From the sequence record SRR2962707_2080: DNA of 64,000 bases, one strand, 5' to 3'. Shown piece by piece: positions 4,890-47,384 of this stretch. Below the pieces are notes generated by a model. That model made no database searches. It was given only the letters and a program-made list of their open reading frames with translations, and was not told where the DNA came from. Made by a program: the position numbers and the translations under genes. Positions within the stretch are counted from its first letter, which is position 1. Every line of letters begins with the position of its first letter.

Positions 4890-4919
4890 TTAATTCTATT
4901 TAATAGGATTGCTTGGTAC

Positions 4920-4959
4920 AGAAATGAGAAGCCGCTTTCAGAAATGGAAGCGGCTTTTT
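4920..4959 (+). repeat. 40-bp direct repeat, copy 1
   Basis: AGAAATGAGAAGCCGCTTTCAGAAATGGAAGCGGCTTTTT; 38/40 identical to 5878-5917. Confidence 0.9.
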
Positions 4960-4960
4960 T
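4929..4960 (+). terminator. Intrinsic terminator after ettA (possibly bidirectional)
   Basis: AAGCCGCTTTCA-GAAA-TGGAAGCGGCTT hairpin plus T tract. Confidence 0.85.
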
Positions 4961-5020
4961 ATTGGCCTTCATGAACACTTGGAAGACAAAAGGGGAAGAT
5001 TCTGGTTCGGTGTATAAAAT

Positions 5021-5323
5021 TTAAGCGATCGCTTCGATTCCATTTTTCTCAGCCAGCGACAGCATTTTAAGCGCAGCGCCTCTAGGCTTGCTTTCGCCTT
5101 GTTCCCATTTTTTGACAAGTTTATCGCTGACGTTTAAGTATTGAGCAAAAACAGGTTGTGAGAGGTTGTTAGCCAGTCGCAGTTGACGAACTTTCTCAGG
5201 CGTAAATTCATGAATAGACGTGAGGCACAATGCATCAAACTTACGCATAGTCGTTTTGTCTATCACGCCAGCTTTGCTTAGCCCTTTGGCCGTTTTATGT
5301 ACAGATGTTAAAATATCACTCAT
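5021..5323 (-). CDS. XRE/HTH antitoxin (HigA/YiaG-like)
   Basis: TMRKFDALCL...LSQPVFAQYLNVS...KWEQGESKPRGAALKML HTH; ATG overlaps the toxin stop. Confidence 0.88.
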   Translation of the reverse strand: MSDILTSVHKTAKGLSKAGVIDKTTMRKFDALCLTSIHEFTPEKVRQLRLANNLSQPVFAQYLNVSDKLVKKWEQGESKPRGAALKMLSLAEKNGIEAIA

Positions 5324-5705
5324 GACCCTCTCCTTTCCCACTAGCACCGACTGTCGTTAATTCACCAGACAAGATCAGGCGATCTATCTCTTCCGAATCG
5401 AAAGAAATAAAAGTTTGAGCCAACTCTCTAAGTGCGAGTTTTTCTTGATGAGAAATATTTGCTCGTTGATTCTTAGCAAATGCATATAAGAAGAAGTACT
5501 TCTCATCAATAACCGCACCAATCAGAGTACGAAAGCCTCCACTCTTACCTTTGTTTCCTGACGCAACTCTCTTTTTATAAAGCGATCCGCCCAAGTCCGC
5601 ATCGATCAAACCTCGCTTTATTTCGTCACATGCCTGAATCAAATCTGCATCAGACATGCTTTCTTTCTTAGTTAAAGAACAAAACGCTCTTGTCTTATAA
5701 ATCAA
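5316..5705 (-). CDS. Type II TA toxin, RelE/ParE (HigB-like) family
   Basis: DADLGG.LYKKRV....GKSGGFR....FLYAFAKN...NIS motifs; AGGAGG RBS before the TTG start; toxin precedes antitoxin. Confidence 0.88.
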   Translation of the reverse strand: MIYKTRAFCSLTKKESMSDADLIQACDEIKRGLIDADLGGSLYKKRVASGNKGKSGGFRTLIGAVIDEKYFFLYAFAKNQRANISHQEKLALRELAQTFISFDSEEIDRLILSGELTTVGASGKGEGHE

Positions 5706-5733
5706 AGTATACCCTCCTTGGGTAGTATTTCAA
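5706..5733 (-). promoter_or_regulatory. Putative TA promoter/operator
   Basis: Minus strand TTGAAA-N16-TATACT enclosing the inverted repeat TACCC-N5-GGGTA, which overlaps the SD. Confidence 0.45.
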
Positions 5734-5877
5734 CAATACTCTACACATCCTGTGTTTGTTTTATCTTGCCATCTATTTCACTGTAGCACTCTTTTAGATA
5801 CTTCAACTAAGCACCTTAAAAGCCGATCGCTATGGCTCAAGTTATGCGTTTGCAACGCAGTGCGATCGTGTAGGGTT

Positions 5878-5917
5878 AGAAATGAGAAGCCGCCTTCAGA
5901 AATGGGAGCGGCTTTTT
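5878..5917 (+). repeat. 40-bp direct repeat, copy 2 (degenerate ettA terminator)
   Basis: AGAAATGAGAAGCCGCCTTCAGAAATGGGAGCGGCTTTTT. Confidence 0.9.
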
Positions 5918-5956
5918 AAGACATAAAGAGGGTGGTTTTATCGATTTTTGAGGGGG

Positions 5957-6622
5957 TTAGAGGAAGAATTTTCCGATCTGGATCTTAAAACTGTCTTTTT
6001 GTACGAACGCGTATTCTACTTTGTTTAACAGCCCTAAGTTTCCTAGCACGCTCAGTAAGACGGTTTCATCGCAGCTCTCCATCCGCTCGCCGATGATGAT
6101 TTTAGACAAGGACTTCTTATCATATTGCAGAGAGTCGGATTTTTCCGTTATAAAACGATATTCCCTTTCATTCTCAAATTCTTTCGGCTTTTGGAAAAAG
6201 AGGTTTCGATACATGTTTTTGTCGCGCAAAACCTCATGATCAACACCGGATAGCGGCTCTGGCCCTTGGTCGCTAGACAAGGGATCTAACAAGGTTCTAC
6301 CCGATTGATAATGCACATCTCCATTGAATAAAACGGCACTCTCTATACTTGAAACAAAGCTGTCGAAGCCAAACACCAAACAGAAACCTTTTAATTCATT
6401 GCCGTAATGCGCCCACATAAAAGGGGAGTTTTCTATTTGAGAAGGCTCCCCTTTCGTCATACTAAGAATGCCAAATTTTTTTAAATCTTTACTGTGCCCC
6501 TCTAAAGCAAACATGCCTTCTGTTGGGTCATTTAACTGATCAGTTCTGGCAAAATATAGGCTATGTTTGATTAACCCTTCTAACGAGAGGTTATTGATCG
6601 TTTGAAACTTATATAGATTCAT
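5957..6622 (-). CDS. DUF2971-like protein
   Basis: LYKF...LYF....LNDP.EG...MWAHYG....GFCL.F...V.Y...KP..FE.E.EYR pattern; ATG 6622 has a GGAG RBS (alternative start 6634); AT-richer than flanks. Confidence 0.7.
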   Translation of the reverse strand: MNLYKFQTINNLSLEGLIKHSLYFARTDQLNDPTEGMFALEGHSKDLKKFGILSMTKGEPSQIENSPFMWAHYGNELKGFCLVFGFDSFVSSIESAVLFNGDVHYQSGRTLLDPLSSDQGPEPLSGVDHEVLRDKNMYRNLFFQKPKEFENEREYRFITEKSDSLQYDKKSLSKIIIGERMESCDETVLLSVLGNLGLLNKVEYAFVQKDSFKIQIGKFFL

Positions 6623-6654
6623 CCAATACTCCATCGATAACTTTTGACGAGCTC

Positions 6655-6902
6655 GGCCATCACATCAATGTCTTTTTCAGCCAATGACAGTATTTTCAGC
6701 ACAGCATCTTGAGGGCGTTCGCCTTGCCCCCATTGTTAACGCGCTTGTCACTGGCGTTTAAGCATGGTGTAGAAAACGCTGGTGACCGTTTGTTGATGAG
6801 CCTTAAAGCCTTGACCTACCCTAGGATGAAACCATAAATACAAGTAAGGCATCAAATTTACGCAGAGTTATTTCCTCCCGATAGACATTGCTTTAACTAG
6901 CC
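6655..6902 (-). pseudogene. Decayed paralog of the HTH antitoxin at 5021-5323
   Basis: Fragments TLRKFDAL, LNASDKRV and WGQGERPQDAVLKILSLAEKDIDVMA align with TMRKFDAL, LNVSDKLV and WEQGESKPRGAALKMLSLAEKNGIEAIA, with frameshifts between them. Confidence 0.8.
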
Positions 6903-6936
6903 TACCGGTCATAGAGTCGTAATAGTGGCGGTTTGA

Positions 6937-7902
6937 TCACGGCCGCTTTTTCAAGATGCCACTGGCGATAAGCACGCCGACGCTCACAAGAACTAAGCCA
7001 ACAATAGCGTAGCTGGTAATGGCCTCGCCTAATACTGGAATGGCAATAAGCGCAGCGAGAACAGGCGTAAAGGCACCGATGGCCGCCATGTTTTCGGCCC
7101 CCAACTTATGAATAGCATACCCATAGGTAAAACCAGTCAGCAATCCCACCAGCAAACTTTGCACCAGTATCTGTCCTGCTAACATATCCCACGAAGCATC
7201 TGCCAATCCGCTAGACACCATTCCTGTGGCGTACATAAACAAGAGAATCACGGTGGACGACAATCCCATTAACGCGGTGGACACTAAGGGTGGCAAACCA
7301 GCAATGCGAAGGCTTACGGTATATATAGCCCAGAAAACACTGGCGCCCAGCAACATTAAATCCCCTATCCAGGTGCCTGCTGGTGCGGTAAACAATGATA
7401 AAACCATTAATACCACGACGCCTGCACACACAAAACTCAAGCCAATTTTACGCGCAGGGCTGACCTTCTCTTGATAAAAAAGCACCGCCAACAAGGTGAC
7501 AAAAAACGGATAGGCGCCGAGGATCAATAAACCGGCATGGGACGCTGGTGCGTACTTTAGCCCTGTGGCGCTTAAATAGAAAAATGGTAATCCGGCACCA
7601 CAAATAATGCCTAATAACAGCAGCGGCGATACCGCTTTTACTTGCCCGCGAGCGCGCCAAAGAATCGGCCACAACAGCAATGCCGGTGGCGAAAAACGCA
7701 ATATGCCCAGGTCAAAGGCGGTTAATGAATTGGTCATGCCAGCACGCATACTGACCAACCAAGATGCCCAAATCAAAATGCTCACCAAGGCCGCTAATAA
7801 GCCAAGGCGAAACCCCCACCCGGTCGCGTATTGTTTGTATTTTGGAGGCTCGGCCGCCACGGTTTGTTGAGACTTTTCTAGGTATATTTGTGACATAGCC
7901 AC
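6937..7902 (-). CDS. DMT/EamA family transporter (probable amino-acid exporter)
   Basis: 10 TM EamA pattern; divergent from an Lrp regulator. Confidence 0.85.
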   Translation of the reverse strand: MAMSQIYLEKSQQTVAAEPPKYKQYATGWGFRLGLLAALVSILIWASWLVSMRAGMTNSLTAFDLGILRFSPPALLLWPILWRARGQVKAVSPLLLLGIICGAGLPFFYLSATGLKYAPASHAGLLILGAYPFFVTLLAVLFYQEKVSPARKIGLSFVCAGVVVLMVLSLFTAPAGTWIGDLMLLGASVFWAIYTVSLRIAGLPPLVSTALMGLSSTVILLFMYATGMVSSGLADASWDMLAGQILVQSLLVGLLTGFTYGYAIHKLGAENMAAIGAFTPVLAALIAIPVLGEAITSYAIVGLVLVSVGVLIASGILKKRP

Positions 7903-31835: not shown

Positions 31836-31977
31836 CGTTCGTCTCAAGCTTTCTTAATTAACGGACTTTTACGTCTGGCTGCCATAAAGCCCTTTCTTTC
31901 TCTAGTAACTTAACTTTATCCTTAGACCACTAATTATTGGATTGCGGCTGCAATTTATAGTCAAAAAATGTACAATT

Positions 31978-32007
31978 GTTTTTATTAAACGAGCGTTTAA
32001 TAAAAAC
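31978..32007. promoter_or_regulatory. Perfect palindromic operator upstream of betB
   Basis: GTTTTTATTAAACG-AG-CGTTTAATAAAAAC (14-bp arms) just after a TACAAT -10-like hexamer at 31971. Confidence 0.7.
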
Positions 32008-32077
32008 GCGAAAGTCAAAACACCGATTATTCAAGCGAATTTATCGTCAAGAAACCAAACGATTAAAGAGGTTTATC

Positions 32078-33535
32078 ATGGCACATCAGCAGCAATATAT
32101 TCACGGTCGCTACCTTGCATCAACAAGCGGAGAACATTTCGACACGCTAAACCCAGCAACAGGCGAAGTGATTGCTACCATCGAGCATGCCGGACAAGCT
32201 GAGTTGGATGCTGCTGTCGAGTCAGCAAAAAAAGGCCAGCAAGTATGGGCTGCAATGAGCCCAGTTGAGCGTGGTCGCATCCTTAAAAGAGCCGCTGAAT
32301 TGTTGCGTGAAAACAACGAAGAGCTGGCTCGTCTAGAAGTGTTAGACACAGGTAAACCTCTACAAGAAGCCATTTGTGTTGATATCGAAACCGGCGCCGA
32401 TGTCATCGAATATTACGCAGGCCTAACCGATAAAATCCAAGGCGAATACCAGGACCTTGGTAACGGTAACTTTTATTACACTCGCAAAGAAGCGTTGGGA
32501 GTTTGTGCCGGCATTGGCGCTTGGAACTACCCTATTCAAATCGCTTGCTGGAAATCCGGTCCTGCTCTAGCGGCTGGCAACGCGATGATTTTCAAGCCTT
32601 CTGAAGAAACCCCACTAACGGCGCTAAAACTGGCTGAGATTTACACTCAAGCCGGCTTACCAGATGGCGTCTTCAATGTGGTTCAAGGGGATGCTCGCAC
32701 CGGTCAAATGATTACCGCGCACCCTGGCATCGACAAGGTGTCCTTCACCGGCGAAGTTGGCACAGGTAAAAAAGTCATGGCGGCTTCAGCGCAATCTTTG
32801 AAACAAGTGACCATGGAATTAGGTGGTAAGTCCCCTATGATCATTTTCCCTGACATGCCAATCGATCAAGCCGTGTCGGCGGCGATGCTTGCCAATTTCT
32901 ATACGCAAGGCGAAGTATGTACCAATGGCACACGCGTTTTTGTGCATGCAGACATCATGGAAGCCTTCACCAAAGAACTAAAAAGCCGCACAGAAGCCAT
33001 GATCATTGGCGACCCTATGAACATGGAAACCCAAGTTGGCGCGCTAATTTCTAAAGACCATATGCAAAAAGTATTGGGCTTTATTGAAGCGGCAAAAGCC
33101 TCTGGCGCAACCTTGTTATGCGGTGGTTACCAAGTCACTGACAATGGGTTAGAAAACGGCGCATTCGTTGCGCCAACCGTGTTCACGGATTGCACCGACG
33201 ACATGCCACAAGTGCGTGAAGAAATCTTCGGCCCTGTTATGTCAGTCTTAAGCTTTACCGACGAAGACGAGGTTATTGCCCGTGCAAACGACACAAAATA
33301 TGGCTTAGCAGCCGGTGTTTTCACCAAAGACTTTGCTCGTGCACACCGTGTGATCAACCAAATGCAAGCGGGTATTTGTTGGATCAACGCATGGGGGTCT
33401 TCTCCGGCTGAAATGCCTGTCGGTGGTTATAAAGAGTCTGGCGTGGGCCGTGAAAATGGCATCGAGACTTTATATCACTACACGCAAAACAAAAGCGTGT
33501 TTGTTGACTTAAACGACATTCAAAACCCTTATTAA
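32078..33535 (+). CDS. betB: Betaine aldehyde dehydrogenase
   Basis: [51 protein letters not shown]; upstream of betA. Confidence 0.96.
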
Positions 33536-33547
33536 GCGAGCACAGAC

Positions 33548-35215
33548 ATGAGCAACGAACTGTACGATTACATCATAGTCGGCGCGGGCTCCGCAGGGTG
33601 TGTGCTGGCAGACAGACTCACAGAAAGTGGTGACAACAAGGTACTGCTATTGGAAATGGGCGGTTCAGACAAAAGCCTATTTATCCAGATGCCGACCGCC
33701 TTGTCCTACCCGATGAACACGGAAAAATACGCTTGGCAATTTCATACCGAAAAAGAGCCAGGCTTAGACAACCGTGAAATGCACTGCCCACGTGGCAAAG
33801 TATTAGGCGGCTCTTCTTCCATCAATGGCATGGTCTATGTTCGAGGCCACGCTTGCGACTTTGACCAATGGGAAGAGCATGGCGCCAAAGGTTGGAATTA
33901 CCAAACCTGTCTGCCGTATTTCAAAAAAGCAGAAACATGGAAAAACGGTGCGGACACTTACCGTGGTGGTCAAGGCCCTCTGTCGACCAACAATGGTAAC
34001 GACATGACCTACAACCCACTTTATCAAGCCTTCATAGAGGCAGGTGATGAAGCAGGTTACGGCAAAACCGACGACTACAATGGCTACCGCCAAGAAGGTT
34101 TTGGTGCCATGCATATGACGGTAAAAAAAGGCGTACGAGCCTCAACCTCTAATGCCTACCTGCGCCGTGCAATGCTACGTTCTAACCTGACATTAAAAAC
34201 GGGGGTTCTTAGCCATAAAGTCGTATTCGAAGGCAAAAAAGCCGTAGGCATAGAATTCAGCAACAATGGCCACACCCAACAAGTCAACGCGCGTAAAGAA
34301 GTCATCTTATCTGCGGGATCTGTTGGCTCTCCGCAATTATTGCAATTGTCAGGTGTGGGGCCAAAAGACGTACTTGAAAAAGCTGGCGTGCCACTTTTAC
34401 ACGAGCTTTCTGGTGTGGGTGAAAATTTGCAGGATCACCTGGAAGTCTACTTTCAGTACTTCTGTAAGAAGCCCGTCACACTAAACAGCAAGCTTGGCTT
34501 GATCAGCAAAGGCATGATCGGAACCCGATGGATGCTCTTTAAGACAGGCTTAGGGGCGACGAATCACTTTGAATCCTGTGGTTTTATCCGCTCCCGTGCT
34601 GGCCTAAAGTGGCCTAATATTCAATACCACTTCTTACCTGCTGCTATGCGCTACGACGGCCAAGCCGCGGTAGAAGGCCATGGTTTCCAAGTGCATGTAG
34701 GGCCGAACAAGCCTGAAAGTCGTGGCAAATTATGGATTGAATCTGCAGATCCACAAGCTAAGCCTAGAATTCTGTTTAACTACATTTCAACAGAACAAGA
34801 CAAGCAGGATTGGCGCGATACTATTCGCCTGACGCGAGAAATACTTCAGCAACCCGCCTTGAACGAATTCCGTGGTGACGAAATTCAACCTGGAATCGAC
34901 ATTCAAAGCGATGCAGACATCGACCAGTGGGTAAAAGAAAACGTTGAAAGCGCCTACCACCCTTCTTGTACTTGTAAGATGGGTGACGACAGCGACCCAA
35001 TGGCCGTATTAAACGAATATTGCCAAGTTCGTGGCTTGCAAAATTTGCGCGTGGTCGACTCGTCTGTGTTTCCTACTATTACCAACGGTAACTTAAATGC
35101 GCCGACTATCATGGTGGCTGAAAAAGCCGCCGATATGATTCTTGGTAAGCAAGCGCTGCCTCGCTTAGAAGCGCCGGTTTGGATTCACCCAGAGTTTGAA
35201 AGCAAACAGCGTTAA
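33548..35215 (+). CDS. betA: Choline dehydrogenase
   Basis: GMC oxidoreductase: [46 protein letters not shown]. Confidence 0.96.
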
Positions 35216-35337: not shown

Positions 35338-35712
35338 CTAAAAAGGGTCTTCTACCACACGATATTGCTTACGATGAGCATCAAATCGATACCAAATACC
35401 CTTACACTTAAAGTAGTCATGTTCTTGATAATGCACTACTTTATGGTCCTCAGGTATGTCGTCTACCCAAACACCTGGTGACGGCACAATAACGACATAT
35501 CCTCTTGGTCCATCGCGATAAAAAACGCCATCTGAATAATAAATGTCGTTTCTGACGACCACATGACGCGGAGGCAGTGTCGTCAATACAGAACCAATTG
35601 CTACCCCAGCACCAAAAGCAAATAGGCCCAGTGGCGCACCGCCGCGCGGCCCCATAGCGCAACCTGATAAGGTGAGGCAGCAGCTCAATGCTAAAACAGA
35701 ACGAAATCTCAT
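35338..35712 (-). CDS. Lipoprotein, DUF6515-like
   Basis: Lipobox LSGC; two LP......YY..G.FY......Y.VV-type repeats; AGGAG RBS. Confidence 0.75.
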   Translation of the reverse strand: MRFRSVLALSCCLTLSGCAMGPRGGAPLGLFAFGAGVAIGSVLTTLPPRHVVVRNDIYYSDGVFYRDGPRGYVVIVPSPGVWVDDIPEDHKVVHYQEHDYFKCKGIWYRFDAHRKQYRVVEDPF

Positions 35713-36219: not shown

Positions 36220-36232
36220 AATATGGAGAAAA
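36220..36232 (-). promoter_or_regulatory. BaeR-like box upstream of the EF-hand gene
   Basis: TTTTCTCCATATT, identical to 38508-38520 and similar to the E. coli BaeR motif TTTTTCTCCAT. Confidence 0.7.
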
Positions 36233-36235
36233 TGC

Positions 36236-36916
36236 CTACTGGTCGTCAAATTTATAACCAACACCGTAAACAGATTTGATGCAGTCTAGTTCTGGTTCTA
36301 TTTCTTCTAGTTTACGTCTTAGGTTTTTGATGTGGCTATCAATAGTACGATCTGCAACCACTCTGTGATCGGAATAAATATGATCCATCAACTGATCACG
36401 GCTGTATATACGGCCGGCATTTTTGAACAAAAGCGCCAAAATTTTAAATTCAGCTGGTGTGAGAGCAACTTTTTGTTGGTGGTAACGCACCGTCATGGAA
36501 GGCTCATCCACTTGCAGTGTGCCTTGCGTTTTTATGGCTGGCGCTTCGCTACGGCGTAAAATATTTTTTACTCTGACCACCACTTCTCTGGTGCTATACG
36601 GTTTGCAAATATAATCGTCTGCGCCCAATTCAAGACCAATCAATCGATCAATTTCTTCTATTTTAGCGGTCGCCATAATCACAGGCACTTCACTAAAGCT
36701 GCGGATGTCTCGGAAAATATCCAGCCCGTTTCGGTTCGGTAACATCAAGTCTAGAATAATCATATCTGTATGATTTTCTTTAACAAAATCAACAACAAGC
36801 GAACCGTCATTCAACTGGCTGGCATGATAGCCTGCGTGTTCTAAATACTCACAAAGGATCGCCGCTAACGTCGGTTCATCTTCAACCACTAGAATACTTT
36901 TCTTTTTCTCATCCAT
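36236..36916 (-). CDS. OmpR-family response regulator, BaeR-like
   Basis: VEDE, LDLMLP, EEIDRLIGLELGADDYICKP, DRTIDSHIKNLRRK, SVYGVGY. Confidence 0.92.
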   Translation of the reverse strand: MDEKKKSILVVEDEPTLAAILCEYLEHAGYHASQLNDGSLVVDFVKENHTDMIILDLMLPNRNGLDIFRDIRSFSEVPVIMATAKIEEIDRLIGLELGADDYICKPYSTREVVVRVKNILRRSEAPAIKTQGTLQVDEPSMTVRYHQQKVALTPAEFKILALLFKNAGRIYSRDQLMDHIYSDHRVVADRTIDSHIKNLRRKLEEIEPELDCIKSVYGVGYKFDDQ

Positions 36917-38429
36917 TACTCATTTCTCTTTTCAATCTTACTTCAATGACTAAACCGCCCAGTTCGGAGCGCTTCGCCACAATGCTTCCGCCGTGCATCA
37001 TGACGATATTATGGCAAATAGACAATCCCAAACCTGAACCACCGTGGGAACGGCTACGGGACTGGTCTACTCGATATAGACGCACAAATAGTTTGCCTAA
37101 GTGAGCATCATCAACACTTGGAGCGGAGTCCTCGAAGAGCAACACAAGGTCATCATTTTGCTCTAGAACCGACAGCTTTATTGTGCCGGGTGCGTCCGTA
37201 TAGCGAAGGCTATTTTCTAATAGGTTTACACACAGCTGCTCTAATGTTTTTTCATCTCCTTTAATAAAAATAGGCTCTGAAATCAATCGTTCTAAGCGCA
37301 GACCTTTTTGTGCCATCCTGTGTTCGAAACGATTGGCGACGGATTGCAGCAAGGCCACAATGTCCAACCGACGAACGTCCAGTTGATACACGCCCGCATC
37401 GGTTTTAGACAAGAGGTAAAGATCATCCACCAAACGACGCAATCCCATCACCTGATGGTGCATAGAATCCATGCGCGTCATTTCTGGTTTGCGAATACCA
37501 TCTTGAATGGCTTCTAACTCACTGCGCAAAACCGCTATCGGAGTTCGCAGTTCATGAGAAATATCGACTAACCATTGTTCACGACTGTCTTTTTGGCGTT
37601 TCAGGCTGCCAGCTAAATATTGAAAGCGATTAGCAAGCTCACCAAATTCATCATTACTACTGCTCTCAAACGTAAAGCTGTAGTCCCCTTCGGATAGTGC
37701 ATTTGCCCCCTGTTGTAAGCGTTTTAATGGTGACAAAAAGTGACGCACCAACCCCAAGGCAACAAGCAAGGAAGCCAAGCCAGCTAGGCCGATAATCCAG
37801 ATGAGGTTATGCTGCTGTTGCGCATAAAACTGCCCTACCAAAGGCCCTGAAAGCTGATTTTTTTGTTTAAGTACAAGCCAACCAACAATCTGTTTGCCTT
37901 GTTTAATCGGCTCCCTAAACCACTCAACACTGCTCTCTTTTGAATCAGAAAAATACACGCCTGCGATCCAATGATGGTTGTCATCTTCCAGAAAAAGTCG
38001 ATGACTGATAGGGCCAAACTCTTCCGACATAGCCGCATCTCTAGGGGGGAGATCATGGGGATCTGGACCTCGATCAGGCCCTCGATTAGGCCCTCGCTCT
38101 AAGCCTGAATCTGGGCCGCCAAGGTCAATATTCGGTTTAATATGACGCTCAGGCGCCGCGCCGTTCTTAGGAAACGGTACGCCTAATTTTACAAAAAGAT
38201 CCCCCCAAATTTCAGGTTGCTCTTGCAACTCTTGCCAACCAACGTTCGCTGAATAATACCCAGACAAAAGACTCGCTAGCTGTTCGACTTGCTCTTTTTC
38301 TTGCTGGTTTAAGTACTCTTGAAAACCTGATTTGAAGCTGTAACTAACAGAAAAAGTCATTCCGATGACCAATAAAATACTGGTCATAAACAAGGAAATA
38401 AACAGTTTCGTAAATATAGGGACTCGCAC
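36909..38429 (-). CDS. Sensor histidine kinase, BaeS-like
   Basis: Two TM, HAMP, DISHELRTP, NLLENSLRYTD, GGSGLGL; ATGA-type overlap region with the regulator; GTG start. Confidence 0.92.
   Translation of the reverse strand: MRVPIFTKLFISLFMTSILLVIGMTFSVSYSFKSGFQEYLNQQEKEQVEQLASLLSGYYSANVGWQELQEQPEIWGDLFVKLGVPFPKNGAAPERHIKPNIDLGGPDSGLERGPNRGPDRGPDPHDLPPRDAAMSEEFGPISHRLFLEDDNHHWIAGVYFSDSKESSVEWFREPIKQGKQIVGWLVLKQKNQLSGPLVGQFYAQQQHNLIWIIGLAGLASLLVALGLVRHFLSPLKRLQQGANALSEGDYSFTFESSSNDEFGELANRFQYLAGSLKRQKDSREQWLVDISHELRTPIAVLRSELEAIQDGIRKPEMTRMDSMHHQVMGLRRLVDDLYLLSKTDAGVYQLDVRRLDIVALLQSVANRFEHRMAQKGLRLERLISEPIFIKGDEKTLEQLCVNLLENSLRYTDAPGTIKLSVLEQNDDLVLLFEDSAPSVDDAHLGKLFVRLYRVDQSRSRSHGGSGLGLSICHNIVMMHGGSIVAKRSELGGLVIEVRLKREMSNG
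38065..38100 (-). repeat. 3 x 12-bp tandem repeat in the kinase periplasmic region
   Basis: Plus strand GGACCTCGATCA GGCCCTCGATTA GGCCCTCGCTCT; encodes ERGP-NRGP-DRGP. Confidence 0.75.
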
Positions 38430-38507
38430 AATATTTCCTTTCTATATGGCATAAAACAAGCTTTTTAGGCTCAAAAAGCACGTGTTTTGGCGAAGTAAAC
38501 TTCTCAC

Positions 38508-38520
38508 TTTTCTCCATATT
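38508..38520 (+). promoter_or_regulatory. BaeR-like box upstream of the redox operon
   Basis: TTTTCTCCATATT, identical to 36220-36232 (minus strand). Confidence 0.7.
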
Positions 38521-38575
38521 CACCACAAAATTTATGGCTACCTTGGGCTCTATTATTTCATTCTCGGGTACGCGC

Positions 38576-39961
38576 ATGGCAAGCTTACTAGAAAATCGGA
38601 TCTTAGCGTCCTTCTCGCAGTTTATAAAACAGAAGACCTATCCAACACAAGGCTGGTTAACCATTCAGTTTGCTCTTCTGGTGCTGCTTCCCTATGTTTT
38701 TCTAGCCATATTGCCGATGGATAACAAAGGCATTTACGTAGAAATATTAAGCTTTTTAAATCTCGTAATGATGCTTTCCATGATGCTGCAATTCCCGCTG
38801 GCCGCGCGCTTAAAACACGCAAAACTCTTCTCTCGTATTGATTGGAATATGCAACAGCATAAGCGTATGGGAAAGTGGATTGGTGTGTTTTTCTTCTTAC
38901 ATCCTCTGTTAATTTTGCTGCCGAAATGGCTGTTATCCAGCGCAGATTTACGCTTATCCATTATTGAATCGATCACAGCGCCACGTTTATTAACAGGGAT
39001 TATTGCGTGGGTTTTATTGGCCGTTTGGGTGCTTTCTTCCATTTATAAAAACAAGCTTCCCATTGCCTATGATAAGTGGAAATTATGGCATACTGCAGGC
39101 TTCATGGTGGTATTAATTCTAGCGACCTGGCACATCACCCAAGTAGGCAGTCACGGGCAGTTTGGTCAGTATATCAATCTGCTTTGGTGGTCGGCCTGTT
39201 TCTTATCATTGGCATTTACCGTCTATGGTTATGCGATTAAACCCAAATTATTAAGCCAGCATGCCTGTACCTTGGTGAGCCGAGAAAAAGTCAGTTTTAA
39301 CGATTGGTTAATCACCTTAAAAACCCACTCTGCTTTTACTTTCCAGCCGGGACAATTTGTCTGGCTGAGCACTAAGACAAGCGCCTATGAGCTAGATTAC
39401 CACCCATTTTCCATTGCATCTACGCCCAGGTCTCTACCGAATTTATCCTTTGTAATCAGAGAATTAGGCGACTACACAAGATCACTTGAACAACTCAAAC
39501 CAGGACAAGCCGTCTTCGTCGATGGACCTTATGGCAATATGACCTTAGCGGCCAATGATGCCAGTAACGCCATCATTTTAATTGCCAGCGGCGTCGGCAT
39601 AGCACCGATTATCGGCTTATTACGCGCTCTCGCTGAAGCCAATGATCCTCGTCCGATTCGTCTCATCTACGGTAACCGAACCTATTCGCAGATGCTCTTC
39701 ACTGAAGAATTGGCGCACTTTGAGAACACGCTGAATAATTTTAAAACCCGTTTTGTTTGTTATTTACCCTCAACCTTTGCGATTTATTACCAAGGTTTTA
39801 TTGACCAAACTTGCTTACAAAGTGCGTTGCAAGATGTTCCGGTCGAGACCAGCTCTGTGTATCTCTGTGGTTCTGACATCGCGGTAAAAAACATCCGTAA
39901 AGGCCTGAAACAATTTCCCATTCCGGCGCGAAATATCCATTTCGAACAACTTTCATTTTAA
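38576..39961 (+). CDS. Ferric reductase/NOX-like membrane flavocytochrome (heme-b TM domain plus FAD/NAD(P)H domain)
   Basis: Paired His in TM helices (QHKRMG...FLH; LWH...TWH), HPFSIAS, VDGPYG, ASGVGIAP, YLCG, FEQLSF; start 38534 or 38576. Confidence 0.85.
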   Translation: MASLLENRILASFSQFIKQKTYPTQGWLTIQFALLVLLPYVFLAILPMDNKGIYVEILSFLNLVMMLSMMLQFPLAARLKHAKLFSRIDWNMQQHKRMGKWIGVFFFLHPLLILLPKWLLSSADLRLSIIESITAPRLLTGIIAWVLLAVWVLSSIYKNKLPIAYDKWKLWHTAGFMVVLILATWHITQVGSHGQFGQYINLLWWSACFLSLAFTVYGYAIKPKLLSQHACTLVSREKVSFNDWLITLKTHSAFTFQPGQFVWLSTKTSAYELDYHPFSIASTPRSLPNLSFVIRELGDYTRSLEQLKPGQAVFVDGPYGNMTLAANDASNAIILIASGVGIAPIIGLLRALAEANDPRPIRLIYGNRTYSQMLFTEELAHFENTLNNFKTRFVCYLPSTFAIYYQGFIDQTCLQSALQDVPVETSSVYLCGSDIAVKNIRKGLKQFPIPARNIHFEQLSF

Positions 39962-39973
39962 TAGGATCACATT

Positions 39974-40189
39974 ATGCCCATTCATCAAATTTCCGGCTGT
40001 ATCGGTTGTAATGCTTGTATTGAAAGCTGCCCTACCGATGTCATAAAGCTCGATGAAGCAACGCAAAAAGCCGTTATTCAATACCCTGAAGATTGCCAAA
40101 TCTGCCACTTGTGTCGGTTATATTGTCCGGTAGGCGCCATCACTATTACCCCTGAAAAATCCATTCCCGTGATGGTTTCTTGGAGGTAA
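39974..40189 (+). CDS. 2x[4Fe-4S] ferredoxin (AprB-like)
   Basis: CIGCNACIESCP and CQICHLCRLYCP; no signal peptide; AGGA RBS. Confidence 0.92.
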   Translation: MPIHQISGCIGCNACIESCPTDVIKLDEATQKAVIQYPEDCQICHLCRLYCPVGAITITPEKSIPVMVSWR

Positions 40190-40191
40190 GA

Positions 40192-41985
40192 ATGAGCGAT
40201 TCAAAACAAAAAGGACTCTCAAGGCGCCAGTTTATTAGCGCAGCAGGCAGTGCTCTGGGTGTTGCTGCCGCGGGGGCGTATGTGTTTAATCAAATGGATT
40301 TCAATAAGCCACCGATCAGCAATGATACGCCGATGCCACCCAGCACCTTTTCAGTCAAACACATGGAAAGCGATGTGCTGGTCATTGGCAGTGGCATGGC
40401 AGGGTTATTTGCGGCCGTAAAAGCACACGACGCAGGCGCCAAAGTGACCATGGTGTCGAAAGGGCGACTGGGGAGCTCAGGCTTAACTCCGTTCGCCAAA
40501 GGTATTTTTAGTTACGACAAAAACACCAGCAACATGAGCATCGATCAGTTTGTTGCTAAGGTGACAGAATCTGCCATTCAAACCAATAATCCCGTGTTTA
40601 CTCGCCAGCTTGCTGAGCACTCTAAAGCGCGCGTAGAAGAACTCAAAGAGTGGGGCTTCTTTGACTCTCCGCTCTACAACGAAACCTTCTCTCGTCCCAT
40701 CAATGAAAGAGGCATTCCCCTGCATCAAAGGGTCATGATCACGCACCTAATCAAAGAAAATGGTCGCGTTGTGGGCGCCTCTGGTTTCAGTTTAGACAAG
40801 CCAAATTTAATCCATTTCAAAGCAAAGACAGTGATTCTGTGTTCTGGCTCTGGAGGCTTCAAACCCAGTGGTTTTCCGGTCTGTGACCTAACCCACGACG
40901 GCACAATTATGGCTTATAAAATTGGTGCAAAAGTCACCGGAAAAGAGTGGAATGACGGTCATCCAGGGTCCGCCAAGAATTCAGGCTCCAGCTACGACAA
41001 CTGGCACGGTCAAATTGAAGAAAAGCCGCAAATCAATGGCGCTGAAGTACGTCATGATCTTGGAGTCGATATGAACTACCAAGCTTATAAAATAGGTCCG
41101 CCGATCACCATGGGTCCACCACCAATGGGGCCATCAGGAAATAATCCAAAACGACCAGAAATGACGCAGATAAAAGGCGGTCCTTTTGTACCATCCGCCT
41201 TTCGCCATAGAGCGGCACCACCGCCAGAACAAGAAGGCGGCATATTGGCTTTGTTTTCAGGTAAAAAACCCGGCGGAGGTCCACCACCAGGAATGGGCGG
41301 TGAACAAGTCGGTGGCTCCAGCGCTGGCATGGCCATTCATAAATCAGAAGGACTGACGCCGATTAATGAAACGGGGCTCAGTACCATTCCAGGCCTCTAT
41401 GCCGCTGGCGATGCCCTCGGCTCGCATATGTCGGGAGGCATTTATGCACAAATTGGTTCCTCTCTCGCAGGCTCCGCCGTACAGGGCGCCATCGCAGGGG
41501 AAGCCGCCGCACAGGCCAGCAAAAAAATATCATCCGTCGCCATAAGCTCAAGTCGATTAAGAGACATTGAACAAGAAATTTTTGCGCCGCTAAAACGCAA
41601 GCGTGGCTACAGCCCGGCCTGGGTAACACAGGTTCTACAGGGCATCATGATCCCTAATTTTGTATTGTACATAAAGAAAGAACGTCTGCTGCAGGCGGCA
41701 TTAGCGTATGTCGAAGAGCTAAAAGAACATCATGTTCCTATGTTAATTGCCAATGATTTGCATAAGTTAAGACTTGCCCACGAAACCGAGAATATGATCA
41801 TCACGGCAGAGATGAAACTCAAGGCATCGATAATGAGAAAAGAAAGTCGCTGTAGCCATTATCGATTGGATTACCCAAAAATAGACGATAAAAACTGGCA
41901 GGCTTGGATTAATATCTACCAAGATGAGAAGGGTGAAATGGCGTTTGAAAAACAACCTTTTGGCACTTGGGCGAGCGCAACATAA
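40192..41985 (+). CDS. Tat-exported FAD-binding protein of the SdhA/FrdA/AprA/NadB family
   Basis: Twin-arginine SRRQFI plus hydrophobic stretch; DVLVIGSGMAG, GLYAAGD, RKESRCSHYRLDYP..DD.NW; GGAGG RBS. Confidence 0.88.
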   Translation: MSDSKQKGLSRRQFISAAGSALGVAAAGAYVFNQMDFNKPPISNDTPMPPSTFSVKHMESDVLVIGSGMAGLFAAVKAHDAGAKVTMVSKGRLGSSGLTPFAKGIFSYDKNTSNMSIDQFVAKVTESAIQTNNPVFTRQLAEHSKARVEELKEWGFFDSPLYNETFSRPINERGIPLHQRVMITHLIKENGRVVGASGFSLDKPNLIHFKAKTVILCSGSGGFKPSGFPVCDLTHDGTIMAYKIGAKVTGKEWNDGHPGSAKNSGSSYDNWHGQIEEKPQINGAEVRHDLGVDMNYQAYKIGPPITMGPPPMGPSGNNPKRPEMTQIKGGPFVPSAFRHRAAPPPEQEGGILALFSGKKPGGGPPPGMGGEQVGGSSAGMAIHKSEGLTPINETGLSTIPGLYAAGDALGSHMSGGIYAQIGSSLAGSAVQGAIAGEAAAQASKKISSVAISSSRLRDIEQEIFAPLKRKRGYSPAWVTQVLQGIMIPNFVLYIKKERLLQAALAYVEELKEHHVPMLIANDLHKLRLAHETENMIITAEMKLKASIMRKESRCSHYRLDYPKIDDKNWQAWINIYQDEKGEMAFEKQPFGTWASAT

Positions 41986-44904: not shown

Positions 44905-45858
44905 TCAATAGTCACTCAATTTAAAAGAGACAGGCAAAGTAATACTCAGCTGTTTTTCCGGCATATCGTCGGAAAACTTAGGAAGAGGCACGGCCCGCTT
45001 CAGCATGGTTAGCACCGCTTTGTCTAACCGGCGATAGCCGGAGCTTTTCACTATCTTCGCATCAGAGACACTGCCATTGGCATAGGCGGTGAAAGCCAGA
45101 GTCACAACGCCTTCTTCATTACGACGACGAGACGCACGAGGGTATCGCTTATTCTGCGCCAACGCAGTAGTGAGCTGAGTAAAGTATTTGGCTTTGGCGC
45201 CAGGATTGCCGCCTGTGGTAACCGCATTCGAGCTACCAGTCGTGGCTTTTTGACTTGCTTGCGACTTGGGTCCTTGCTTCTGCGGTGTGGCACTCGCCAC
45301 TTGGGTATTTTGGCTTGGCGCGTTTTCAAGCGTTGGTTTTGTTTCTGGCTGAGTCTCTACCTTTGGCGTCGGTTTGGGCGTAGGCTCAACCTTAGCGACC
45401 GGTTTCGGTTTTGGCTCAACCTTCGGCTTAGGCGTCACTTTAGGCACAACCACAGGTGAGGTTTGTTTGGCCACAACAGGGGGAGCAGGTTTTATAACGG
45501 GTTTTTTCACCGGCTCAGGTGTTGTCTCTTTAATCGGTTCTGGCTTCTTCTCGACCGGTGTTGGTTTTTTCTTTTCGACCGGCTTAGGCGGCTTTTCTTT
45601 AACCTTAGGAGGATTGTCTTGCGGTTTCTTTTCCAGCGGTTTTTCTTCGGCTTTTTTCGGGGTGACGTTTTCTTGCTGCGCCAACGTCGTCTGTGCCGCT
45701 GCGCCCATGTCTCCCATCATACCAAGATCAAATTCAATGCCTTGAGCACCCGCGCCTTTACTGCCTTCAGGGGCATGATGAAACACCGCATAAAAACCCA
45801 CAGCATGCATGGAAAGTGCGGCCGCACCAGCTATCAACCAATGACGCTTAGAGATCAT
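44905..45858 (-). CDS. tonB: Energy transducer TonB
   Basis: N-terminal TM with S..H, Pro/Lys/Glu-rich spacer, YP..SRRRNEEG.V and SSG...LD C-terminal domain. Confidence 0.92.
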   Translation of the reverse strand: MISKRHWLIAGAAALSMHAVGFYAVFHHAPEGSKGAGAQGIEFDLGMMGDMGAAAQTTLAQQENVTPKKAEEKPLEKKPQDNPPKVKEKPPKPVEKKKPTPVEKKPEPIKETTPEPVKKPVIKPAPPVVAKQTSPVVVPKVTPKPKVEPKPKPVAKVEPTPKPTPKVETQPETKPTLENAPSQNTQVASATPQKQGPKSQASQKATTGSSNAVTTGGNPGAKAKYFTQLTTALAQNKRYPRASRRRNEEGVVTLAFTAYANGSVSDAKIVKSSGYRRLDKAVLTMLKRAVPLPKFSDDMPEKQLSITLPVSFKLSDY

Positions 45859-46286
45859 TTCTGACCTCTTTCTAATTGCGTGGCCAAACTGACCTTGGTC
45901 AACCCAGACGCCCGAATTTCACTAAAAATAGGGCGTAAGACATCAACCGGAATAAGACCGTCTGCTTTAATTTGCACCCAGAATTTGTCTTTATTCTGTG
46001 CCTGTTCAAATTGGCTTTCTAAGGCGGGTTTTATGGCCTCAAGCGAGACCAATTTATCGTCTAAATAAATCTGTTTATTCTCACCCACAACAATCAATAC
46101 ATTCGGCTCTGTCGCCGCCTTGTTGTCATTAATAGAACTCGGTGGAATCACTGGAATTGGGTCGGCTTTGCGAATTTGCCCCGCGACCATAAAGAAGACC
46201 AACATAAGAAAAACCACGTTGATCAATGGCACCATACTGTCGTCGTCGGCTTTATTCTTGGCCGCAAACTTATCGGCTATTTTCAT
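45855..46286 (-). CDS. exbD: ExbD/TolR family protein (atypical Asn in TM)
   Basis: MVPLINVVFLMLVFFM, IKAD. Confidence 0.88.
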   Translation of the reverse strand: MKIADKFAAKNKADDDSMVPLINVVFLMLVFFMVAGQIRKADPIPVIPPSSINDNKAATEPNVLIVVGENKQIYLDDKLVSLEAIKPALESQFEQAQNKDKFWVQIKADGLIPVDVLRPIFSEIRASGLTKVSLATQLERGQK

Positions 46287-46705
46287 TCTTTATCCTTGCT
46301 GGAAAACGCGTTCGCAATCGACACGGTTTTCGCACCACTTTCCTTAAGACGGTCAGCCAGATTCAACACACTTTGTAGATTAACGCCATCTTCTGCGCTC
46401 ACGGCAAAGGTGCCTTTTTTGTGCTCTGTGATCAGTTTTTTAAACCATGCTGCATCGGATATCGCGTAAGCACTGCCGTCTAACCACACCATTTGATCAT
46501 TCTGCTTCAGTGTGAGCAGCACGATATCATTGTCTTTTGCGGCGCTTGGCGCATCCGATGCCACCGATAATGGCGTGTCTACTGTGCGCCAAGGCACAAA
46601 GCTCGAAGTCAACATAAAGAACAAAAGCAGAATAAAAACAATGTCTATTAACGGTGTCAGACTGATCGCAGTTTTGCGTTTCGGCTGACTTAAATTAAGC
46701 GGCAT
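46283..46705 (-). CDS. exbD: ExbD/TolR family protein
   Basis: ISLTPLIDIVFILLLFFMLTS. Confidence 0.9.
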   Translation of the reverse strand: MPLNLSQPKRKTAISLTPLIDIVFILLLFFMLTSSFVPWRTVDTPLSVASDAPSAAKDNDIVLLTLKQNDQMVWLDGSAYAISDAAWFKKLITEHKKGTFAVSAEDGVNLQSVLNLADRLKESGAKTVSIANAFSSKDKE

Positions 46706-47384
46706 GCAGAACCTCTTTGGCCGCTTTAGCAACCAAACGCTCCGCTTCTTTGCAGGTAAATACTTGCGTCACCGCATCGTTCACCATATGAGAAATACGT
46801 TCCACTTTACGCTCTAACCAGCTGTGCATAGTCACCACAGGAATAGCGACCGCCAAACCGACTGCCGTCGTTAGAAGCGCTTGCCAAATACCGCCAGACA
46901 AGACTGAAGGGTCCACTTGGCTACCGGCGCCTTCCATTTGCTGAAACGCGGTAATCATCCCCAATACGGTTCCTAATAACCCAAGCAATGGGCTCAAAGA
47001 TGCGATGATTTCTAGTGGACGAAAATACGAGCGCAGTTGATTCAGCTTATTCATCGCCAGACGCTCAACTTCTTCACGGATACGATCAACTTCCATATTG
47101 CCAGACTGCAAGGAGCGAATTGAAAAGCCCACCAGCGAATCCACTGGGCGTGTTTCATCGAGTAATTCTAATGCTTGGTTTGGATTATGCTGACGCCATG
47201 CTTCCAATGCCTTATCAACGGTTTTACGACTCTCTGCACGCATCGAAGCAAACTGCCAAAGTTTCATTAAAACGATCGTCAAGGCAACAACAGAAAAGCC
47301 CATTAAGATCCATACCACAGGTCCGCCGACCTGCAAAAAATCAATAATCTGCTGCTGTACTGAATTTTCCACGTTGAGCTCCAA
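46695..47384 (-). CDS. exbB: MotA/TolQ/ExbB proton channel protein
   Basis: SPLLGLLGTVLGMI.AF, GGIWQALLTTAVGLAVAIP; start uncertain (TTG). Confidence 0.92.
   Translation of the reverse strand: MELNVENSVQQQIIDFLQVGGPVVWILMGFSVVALTIVLMKLWQFASMRAESRKTVDKALEAWRQHNPNQALELLDETRPVDSLVGFSIRSLQSGNMEVDRIREEVERLAMNKLNQLRSYFRPLEIIASLSPLLGLLGTVLGMITAFQQMEGAGSQVDPSVLSGGIWQALLTTAVGLAVAIPVVTMHSWLERKVERISHMVNDAVTQVFTCKEAERLVAKAAKEVLHAA

Follow-up and report, generated by a model that had tools for sequence, protein, structure and literature searches.

A conserved trio of NOX-type flavocytochrome, ferredoxin and Tat-signal flavoprotein genes predicted to encode an MsrPQ-like, stress-linked reductase in Marinomonas and other bacteria

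SpNOX of Streptococcus pneumoniae is a six-helix protein with two bis-histidyl hemes and an FAD/NADPH module at its C-terminus; no partner of it is known, and its acceptor in vitro is O2 or cytochrome c. NOX-like proteins are common in bacteria but have no known physiological acceptors, and one study suggests that these acceptors may be other than O2 (PMC5676040). The characterised proteins of the FRD family (NOX, FRE, STEAP and MsrQ) all move electrons outward, as summarised in the accessible parts of PMC5676040 and PMC8238504. In the MsrPQ system of Escherichia coli (YedYZ), which is also a stress-response system, an FRD-family heme b protein feeds a soluble reductase exported by the twin-arginine (Tat) pathway (excerpts of PMC12525009 and PMC8238504). 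We describe here a proposed three-gene operon in a 64,000-nt stretch of DNA from record SRR2962707_2080 (the window), in which a protein like SpNOX is co-encoded with a candidate acceptor pair, a 2x[4Fe-4S] ferredoxin and a flavoprotein with a Tat signal. We think it reasonably likely that the three genes specify an MsrPQ-like, stress-linked reductase that works across the inner membrane. The operon offers a testable answer to the question of the acceptor for one large group of bacterial NOX-like proteins.

In the mechanism that we favor, cytoplasmic NAD(P)H would reduce the flavin adenine dinucleotide (FAD) of the NOX-type module of gene 1 in the Marinomonas of the window, and electrons would traverse the inner membrane via two b hemes. 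The outer heme would presumably hand them to the ferredoxin of gene 2, which would pass them to the FAD of the gene 3 flavoprotein, and the flavoprotein would reduce an oxidant in the periplasm. Ferredoxin and flavoprotein would assemble with their cofactors in the cytoplasm and then be exported jointly by Tat, with the ferredoxin as a hitchhiker. Such a wire would span the inner membrane and not the whole envelope, and the term trans-envelope used in the preliminary description was too broad.

The preliminary description reported three co-directional genes separated by 12 and 2 bp, a first product with two histidine pairs and FAD/NAD(P)H-binding motifs, a signal-less 2x[4Fe-4S] ferredoxin and a flavoprotein with a twin-arginine signal. 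All of these features were borne out by the analyses below. The gene 1 stop codon (TAA, 39959-39961) is followed by a 12-base spacer containing AGGA and then by the ATG of gene 2, and the gene 2 stop codon (TAA, 40187-40189) is followed by a 2-base spacer and the ATG of gene 3, with GGAGG at 40182-40186. Both spacers are exact by the coordinates of the open reading frames and each gene has a ribosome-binding site. The longest open reading frames of genes 1 and 3 begin upstream, at 38534 and 40180; the starts listed in Table 1 were favored because homologue alignments and ribosome-binding sites agree on them. We propose that the three genes form one operon. One metatranscriptome run yielded only two short contigs over the window (37590-37740 and 38337-38630).

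Gene 1 encodes an FRD-FNR fusion in which residues ~1-225 form six predicted membrane helices and residues ~230-461 a NOX-type dehydrogenase module. Five of the hydrophobic segments were above threshold and the sixth (~200-222) was judged by eye. Residues 231-435 match FAD_binding_8/FAD_binding_6 and NAD_binding_1 of Pfam. The N-terminal 231 residues are homologous to stand-alone proteins of ~210 residues encoded next to the flavoprotein gene in other phyla (tblastn E values of 1e-6 to 1e-16), one of which, from Arcobacter, matches PF01794 (Ferric_reduct) with 40.8 bits against a cut-off of 28. In an N-terminal alignment of 73 homologues, H95, H109, H172 and H186 make up two H-x13-H pairs on predicted helices 3 and 5 and are conserved in 71-73 of the sequences; H193, in the next (outer) loop, is conserved in 71. 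H95 and H172 are predicted to ligate the inner heme and H109 and H186 the outer heme. By the positive-inside rule, the N-terminal end and the FNR module are assigned to the cytoplasmic side, where NOX enzymes also have them: the N-terminus and every other loop hold 3, 6 and 4 lysine or arginine residues, the loops between them 1 and 1.

The window protein passes all three parts of the published sequence filter for NOX membership (Hajjar et al. 2017, in the accessible text of PMC5676040). Its FAD motif, H[PSA]F[TS][LIMV], reads HPFSI at residue 276 and is kept in all 34 full-length homologues, the set from which the motifs of the FRD-FNR form were counted. The strict NADPH motif is present as GVGIAP at residue 339; the module also has a C-terminal phenylalanine. 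The bis-histidyl part of the filter (H-x12-14-H on separate helices in a protein of 3-7 helices) corresponds to H95-x13-H109 and H172-x13-H186 and is universal in the 34. A metagenome-assembled genome of Psychromonas (L004) encodes two divergently oriented FRD-FNR paralogues, at 4718-6115 (-) and 6369-7748 (+); a separate BaeR-box-like site precedes the additional copy by 84 bp.

The ferredoxin carries two CxxCxxCxxxCP motifs (C9/C12/C15/C19 and C41/C44/C47/C51). Their eight cysteines, as well as W70, do not vary in any of 22 sequences drawn from several phyla, which are 66-90% identical to the window copy. It matches Fer4_7 with 42.1 bits (cut-off 27). It has no signal peptide, the first cluster ligand being residue 9. 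The flavoprotein, in contrast, begins with S-R-R-Q-F-I followed by a Gly/Ala-rich stretch and scores 22.1 bits with TIGR01409 (TAT_signal_seq, cut-off 16.7). Homologues from Arcobacter and Desulfopila also exceed this cut-off, those of L040 and L062 scoring 18.8 and 17.8 bits, and R11, R12 and F14 are invariant in a set of 16 sequences. TatC is encoded in the nearest genome examined (G001). From this signal we infer that the flavoprotein is exported by Tat. Only the flavoprotein has such a signal, which is most simply read as hitchhiker co-export of the ferredoxin, a mechanism established for other Tat substrates (works in the reference list of PMC4148689).

The twin-arginine motif might instead be unused, all three proteins lying on the cytoplasmic face with the FRD protein as a mere membrane anchor. 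A Tat-like motif was found by regular expression, with a few false positives, in only 23 of 91 full-length relatives; the remaining 68 lack it, and the enzyme core can therefore work in the cytoplasm. Yet three members that are distant from one another score above the cut-off of the Tat model, RR-x-F is invariant in 16 of 16, and a di-heme transmembrane wire would be purposeless with both ends inside. This arrangement is hardly to be expected.

A complex of the two acceptor proteins was modeled with FAD and two clusters, the flavoprotein being entered without its signal, and the median of three runs was compared with three controls. The model scored 0.83, against 0.02 for the best control, and so passed a mark reached by 51 of 78 solved complexes and by 2 of 108 mismatched pairs. 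The runs shared at least 70% of their contacts, with a partner pLDDT (predicted local distance difference test) of at least 78. The confident interface comprises flavoprotein residues 91-101 (G91-F101), 224-232 (K224-D232), H524 and 527-528 (R527), which are invariant in the family, and the region around C19 and C44 of the ferredoxin. Residues 95-101 form the stretch around the position of FrdA H44, beside the flavin. The ferredoxin probably binds the flavoprotein, as judged from this model, and the structure prediction called for in the preliminary description thus came out in favor of the pair.

Conservation of the trio was surveyed with one genome per species in 185,579 species genomes. At least 350 places encode a relative of the flavoprotein, and the locus counts given here rest on the best 80 of these. 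The ferredoxin gene is adjacent in 78 of the 80 loci and the remaining two are cut at a contig end. An FRD protein, scored as linked if encoded within 2.5 kb upstream of the flavoprotein gene, is present in 72; five of the other eight are cut by a contig end. The trio stands side by side in these 72 loci in several phyla, which is not a matter of chance, and the co-occurrence in other genomes that the preliminary description anticipated was found. Carriers belong to the Gammaproteobacteria, Bacteroidota, Desulfobacterota, Campylobacterota and Spirochaetota, with one copy on an alphaproteobacterial megaplasmid, and include aerobes as well as many sediment anaerobes. Flavoproteins of the clade are 60-93% identical over at least five phyla, although within a genus their occurrence is patchy. 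Among 72,556 plasmid records, only 2 have a relative at an E value of 1e-40 or better, so the module is not typically plasmid-borne.

Two architectures were seen. In 35 loci of gammaproteobacterial type the FRD protein is fused to an FNR module and the gene order is FRD-ferredoxin-flavoprotein. In 37 loci, from Bacteroidota, Desulfobacterota, Campylobacterota, Spirochaetota and others, a stand-alone FRD protein without NAD(P)H module is encoded in the order ferredoxin-FRD-flavoprotein. With the NAD(P)H module in only 35 of 72, the conserved core is the ferredoxin, the di-heme FRD protein and the flavoprotein; the module, judged from this distribution, is an addition in one lineage. The preliminary description of a wire self-contained from NAD(P)H therefore suits the gammaproteobacterial form and not the 37 loci with a stand-alone FRD protein. 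In the latter, the most obvious candidate donors, by analogy with proposals for MsrQ, would be a quinol or a separate reductase.

The stand-alone form bears on a different arrangement, in which the ferredoxin would stay in the cytoplasm and donate to the inner heme of the FRD protein while the exported flavoprotein binds at the outer heme itself. The lack of a signal peptide on the ferredoxin, the need for a cytoplasmic or quinol donor in the 37 loci without a reductase module and the gene order ferredoxin-FRD-flavoprotein in the same 37 would all fit. We nevertheless regard this as rather unlikely. In the complex model, the ferredoxin sits on residues that are invariant in the flavoprotein and lie near the position of the covalent FAD of FrdA. 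Its identity of 66-90% between the fused and stand-alone architectures suggests the same job in both, and the fused form already owns an NAD(P)H module. In addition, flavoproteins of sister clades (32-47% identity) still adjoin a ferredoxin gene where no FRD gene was seen nearby. One high-GC metagenome contig (L096:5926-9616) has two tandem flavoprotein-ferredoxin pairs of a sister clade, without Tat signals; the neighboring genes encode a peptide ABC transporter and a DUF1566-like protein.

The direction of electron flow in the favored mechanism is likewise inferred by analogy: it is outward and reductive because of the NOX-type module and the behavior of the characterised FRD proteins. A reverse flow, in which the periplasmic flavoprotein oxidises a donor and electrons run inward to quinone in a redox loop of the formate dehydrogenase-N type, appears very unlikely. 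In its favor, quinone reduction at the inner face is conceivable in principle for the stand-alone di-heme FRD protein of the anaerobes, and AprAB is oxidative in sulfur oxidisers. Against this, the characterised FRD-family proteins cited above all carry electrons outward, and the 35 loci with a NOX-type module would need inward flow to NAD(P)+, which would be thermodynamically implausible.

The catalytic protein was placed by structure and by curated models. It has FAD_binding_2 and Succ_DH_flav_C domains, and an AlphaFold2 model made from a 105-sequence alignment (a representative search in a library clustered at 50% identity) reached a pLDDT of 88.9 and a predicted template modeling score of 0.90; a model with 16 close relatives only (mean pLDDT 49.7) was discarded. 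Confidence was low in a variable Pro/Gly-rich insert (~residues 305-370) at the position of the capping domain. Foldseek returned AprA, AprA-like phosphoadenosine phosphosulfate (PAPS) reductase and FrdA/SdhA as near-equal matches at template modeling (TM) scores of 0.65-0.68 and 16-21% identity, the best being 1jnr (0.67) and 8a8o (0.68). The protein is far under the cut-off of every NCBIfam equivalog compared (TfrA, SdhA/FrdA, MfrA, AprA, NadB), with 149.9 against 718 for TfrA, 113.2 against 567.3 for sdhA_frdA_Gneg, 73.1 against 854 for FrdA, 62.8 against 1100 for MfrA and 84.9 against 641.75 for aprA. The ferredoxin scores 34.8 against 135.65 with the aprB model, over profile positions 7-66 of 132 only. 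These values, and the lack of key fumarate reductase residues described below, speak against placement within an already characterised enzyme clade, which the preliminary description had named as counter-evidence.

For FrdA we take H44 to be the site of covalent FAD, H232, H355 and R390 to bind substrate, R287 to transfer protons and T244/E245/R248 to be a hinge stretch (E245 and T234 mutants are named in PDB titles). The template numbering is the usual mature numbering, because the coordinates used omit the start codon, and residues were mapped by profile alignment, the capping-domain part of which is less certain than the rest. The equivalent of H44 is G97, and the FAD is predicted to be non-covalent. 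H232 and H355 correspond to H257 (in H-P-G) and H383, both invariant. R390 aligns to an invariant Y418, R287 falls in a gap beside an invariant H288, and T244, E245 and R248 lie within an 11-residue deletion. Identity as fumarate reductase, succinate dehydrogenase or aspartate oxidase was rejected on these active-site differences and on curated scores far below the cut-offs, and identity as adenosine phosphosulfate (APS) reductase on the aprA and aprB scores. The sequence E-S-R-C-S-H was considered as an active-site signature and rejected, as the FrdA alignment puts the substrate arginine elsewhere. It arises from C554 (bases 41851-41853), a cysteine in an otherwise conserved C-terminal E-S-R-G-x-H motif, and is specific to this clade: among the 91 full-length representatives at 50% identity only that of this clade has it (regular expression).

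These residues also bear on a respiratory role, in which the trio would serve energy metabolism by passing electrons to an organic terminal acceptor, such as fumarate or an analogue that is not transported, as a periplasm-facing counterpart of MfrABE or of flavocytochrome-type reductases. The superfamily is that of SdhA/FrdA, the equivalents of H232 and H355 are kept, the module occurs in many sediment anaerobes, and MfrA is a Tat-exported fumarate reductase flavoprotein (accessible text of PMC4148689). However, the equivalents of R287 and R390 are lost, the T244/E245 hinge is deleted, the MfrA score is far below its cut-off, the module also occurs in aerobes, and its neighbors are of stress type and not respiratory. 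We consider a respiratory role unlikely, the more so since outward flow through the FRD protein would dissipate membrane potential. Such dissipation is established for NOX and MsrQ. The energy-dissipating geometry and the stress-type neighbors together point to detoxification or repair rather than respiration, and the trio is probably a stress-induced detoxification or repair device and not a respiratory enzyme.

Judged from the FrdA alignment, the substrate of this device is not fumarate. The two kept histidines and an invariant tyrosine in place of an FrdA arginine would suit a small anion or another polar oxidant. AprA chemistry runs via a flavin-sulfite adduct. One candidate class, by analogy, is the chalcogen oxyanions; selenite reduction in Shewanella reportedly proceeds through a periplasmic fumarate reductase (PMC3894562). 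Oxidised envelope proteins are another candidate, after MsrP.

Closest relatives of the flavoprotein carry generic names only among the best 120 of 2772 matches (65-100% identical), as do the Protein Atlas entry and the NCBI annotation of a Paracoccus copy. In the library clustered at 50% identity the clade is a single representative; the next relatives are at most 48% identical and 277 clusters match at an E value of 1e-30 or better. The window copy is 93% identical to that of M. flavescens and 91% to that of M. pollencensis.

Table 1. Positions in the window of the operon, its regulatory sites and the other genes of the island
Feature	Position	Strand	Basis
Gene 1, FRD-FNR flavocytochrome, 461 residues	38576..39961	+	Pfam; homology to PF01794-positive FRD protein; histidine conservation
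Gene 2, 2x[4Fe-4S] ferredoxin, 71 residues	39974..40189	+	Fer4 families; conservation; complex model
Gene 3, SdhA/FrdA/AprA-superfamily flavoprotein, 597 residues	40192..41985	+	Pfam; NCBIfam; TIGR01409; AlphaFold2; Foldseek
Predicted Tat signal of flavoprotein (residues ~1-30)	40192-40281	+	TIGR01409
BaeR-box-like site TTTTCTCCATATT, 13 bases, 56 bp upstream of gene 1 start	38508..38520	+	Consensus match
BaeS-like sensor histidine kinase, divergent from operon	36909..38429	-	HAMP, HisKA, HATPase_c; NCBIfam
BaeR-like OmpR-family response regulator	36236..36916	-	NCBIfam best model BaeR
Identical copy of TTTTCTCCATATT, 78 bp upstream of EF-hand gene	36220..36232	-	Consensus match
Secreted EF-hand (calcium-binding type) protein, 85 residues	35884..36141	-	Pfam EF-hand families
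DUF6515 lipoprotein-like protein, 124 residues, last island gene	35338..35712	-	Pfam; co-presence in Marinomonas
Strong terminator-like hairpin after DUF6515 gene	35305-35272	-	Sequence

As listed in Table 1, the operon is divergent from genes for a BaeS-like kinase and a BaeR-like regulator, a context that the preliminary description missed along with two BaeR-box-like sites. The site TTTTCTCCATATT matches the first half of the E. coli BaeR consensus (as published in the accessible text of PMC3799227). Its 10-base core has no exact match in 64 kb beyond these two sites, where 0.25 matches are expected, and 5 of 100 shuffles reach two. Of 75 loci with sufficient flanking sequence, 6 have the exact 8-mer in sense orientation ahead of the module, two of them close kin of the window; among background windows of equal length, 35 of 4242 contain it. 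The site is conserved in L001 and L002, and variant sites (TTTCT-N-CA) occur in L028, L029 and L034, each of which also has a BaeSR-like pair. Such pairs lie within 8 kb in 11 of the 80 loci. Spy/CpxP-like LTXXQ genes are present in 18 and LytS-type kinases in 13 of the 80, and efflux-pump genes are adjacent in several. In two loci of Flavobacteria, L061 and L068, relatives of the EF-hand protein are encoded next to the flavoprotein, and EF-hand proteins are found in three Desulfobacterota loci. From the sites and the gene neighborhood, the operon appears to be under control of the adjacent BaeSR-like envelope-stress system.

Among 61 Marinomonas genomes, five have the flavoprotein. Three genomes without it retain the synteny of the betBA and peptidase-MltA flanks and lack the whole run of seven genes between and including those for DUF6515 and the flavoprotein. 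Because the seven genes are present or absent together, they form one accessory island. The flanks consist of betB/betA (betaine aldehyde and choline dehydrogenase; 31976-35215) on one side and of a zinc peptidase, a DnaJ-domain-like protein, MltA and a TonB-ExbD-ExbD-ExbB cluster (44905-47384) on the other; both are syntenic in Marinomonas genomes without the island. At window position 38059, in the periplasmic domain of the kinase, contigs of related strains have a 12-base insertion in a repeated G-P-D/N-R-G-P stretch, so that the number of repeats in the sensor domain varies between strains.

Several other features of the neighboring genes were recorded. Two unrelated small secreted proteins share a Q-G-P-P(-P) motif at the N-terminal end of the mature protein, in many cases preceded by a stretch rich in Gly/Gln: in loci L036-L080 it was found by regular expression in 16 of 18 LTXXQ proteins of Bacteroidota and in 6 of 10 copies of a ~90-residue four-cysteine protein of Desulfobacterota and Campylobacterota (examples are L070:2228-2629, L062:6208-6480 and L074:7130-7438). 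The EF-hand protein of the window and the periplasmic domain of its kinase are likewise rich in G-P/P-P. In eight Bacteroidota loci (L036, L038, L050, L051, L053, L054, L072 and L076) the module is inside a larger conserved array with CotH kinase, a VTC (polyphosphate polymerase-type) domain, DUF4956, DUF2490, Lcl_C/DUF1566 lipoproteins and LytS/LytTR, and in Lutibacter a CNNM/CorC-type cation transporter is encoded directly upstream of the module. Together with the EF-hand proteins, the array and the transporter hint at a link to divalent cations or polyphosphate.

Several observations weigh against the reductase that we favor, or against parts of it. Oxygen-labile [4Fe-4S] clusters would be unusual in the periplasm of an aerobe. 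No gene for a dedicated Tat chaperone was seen. The N-terminal 231 residues of the window FRD protein have no Pfam match, even at an E value of 10, and only 3 of the 34 full-length homologues pass the strict NADPH motif, the others having G-A-G at that place. L058, L063 and L074 have full flanks and no FRD gene nearby. The calibration counts of the complex score apply only approximately here, as the job, unlike its calibration, carried ligands; moreover, AprAB and SdhAB complexes have already been solved, and the pass may therefore partly reflect likeness to them. On the regulatory side, the kinase (best NCBIfam model BaeS_SmeS, 384.7 bits) and the regulator (BaeR, 307 bits) fall below their cut-offs of 500 and 380, and for this reason we call the pair BaeSR-like only. 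The evidence for the BaeR box is a motif of short length, and two of the loci that conserve it, L001 and L002, are closely related to the window.

If the favored mechanism is right, the MsrPQ principle of an FRD membrane wire with an exported reductase extends to a second, unrelated catalytic chemistry. A wider proposal, which we put forward tentatively and hold to be possible rather than probable, is that the trio is the first natural case of a bacterial NOX-type flavocytochrome with a dedicated physiological acceptor, an exported Fe-S flavoenzyme from an uncharacterised SdhA/AprA clade. It would represent a new class of envelope-stress-induced periplasmic reductases with chemistry new for the superfamily, for which reduction of selenite or tellurite before cell entry and repair of oxidised envelope components are candidates. 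In the searches made, this widespread and highly conserved flavoprotein clade had generic names only. Its links to BaeSR-like sensors, Spy/CpxP-like and EF-hand proteins and efflux pumps suggest that marine and sediment bacteria have an arm of the envelope stress response that has gone unrecognised, and the stress-type neighbors point to inducing conditions to look for.

The preliminary description held that no characterised system has this composition. In the open-access literature searched we found no description of an FRD/NOX protein with a ferredoxin and a Tat-exported SdhA/AprA-like flavoprotein, and the supplementary tables of PMC8238504 and PMC5676040 may list members of these families. 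One component has a precedent. MfrABE of Campylobacter and Wolinella, a methylmenaquinol:fumarate reductase, has a Tat-exported SdhA-type flavoprotein on the periplasmic side (accessible text of PMC4148689), but Mfr combines fumarate chemistry with an SdhE-type membrane anchor and menaquinol, whereas the membrane part here is an FRD protein and the fumarate-site arginines are absent. AprAB and the AprAB-like PAPS reductase of Methanothermococcus resemble the window pair in having a small 2x[4Fe-4S] partner on the flavoprotein (predicted here) and a non-covalent FAD. Their flavoproteins are only 18-20% identical to that of the window, the 71-residue ferredoxin lacks the AprB tail, and AprAB is cytoplasmic whereas the flavoprotein here has a Tat signal.

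The MsrQ-like flavinylation systems (Meheust et al. 2021) also contain PF01794 proteins, often with a C-terminal PF00175, which are proposed to feed extracytosolic partners (accessible text of PMC8238504). Those systems use ApbE and FMN-binding proteins (same source), whereas the acceptor here would be a ferredoxin with an FAD flavoprotein; no ApbE or FMN_bind gene was seen here. The trio would be a system of the MsrPQ kind. No molybdoenzyme of the MsrP type was among the proteins scanned in and around the operon, and the partner here is an FAD/iron-sulfur pair in which a ferredoxin is interposed. The gammaproteobacterial FRD protein, unlike MsrQ, has its own NOX-type NAD(P)H module, and the regulator is BaeSR-like. 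What is new relative to MsrPQ is the catalytic clade.

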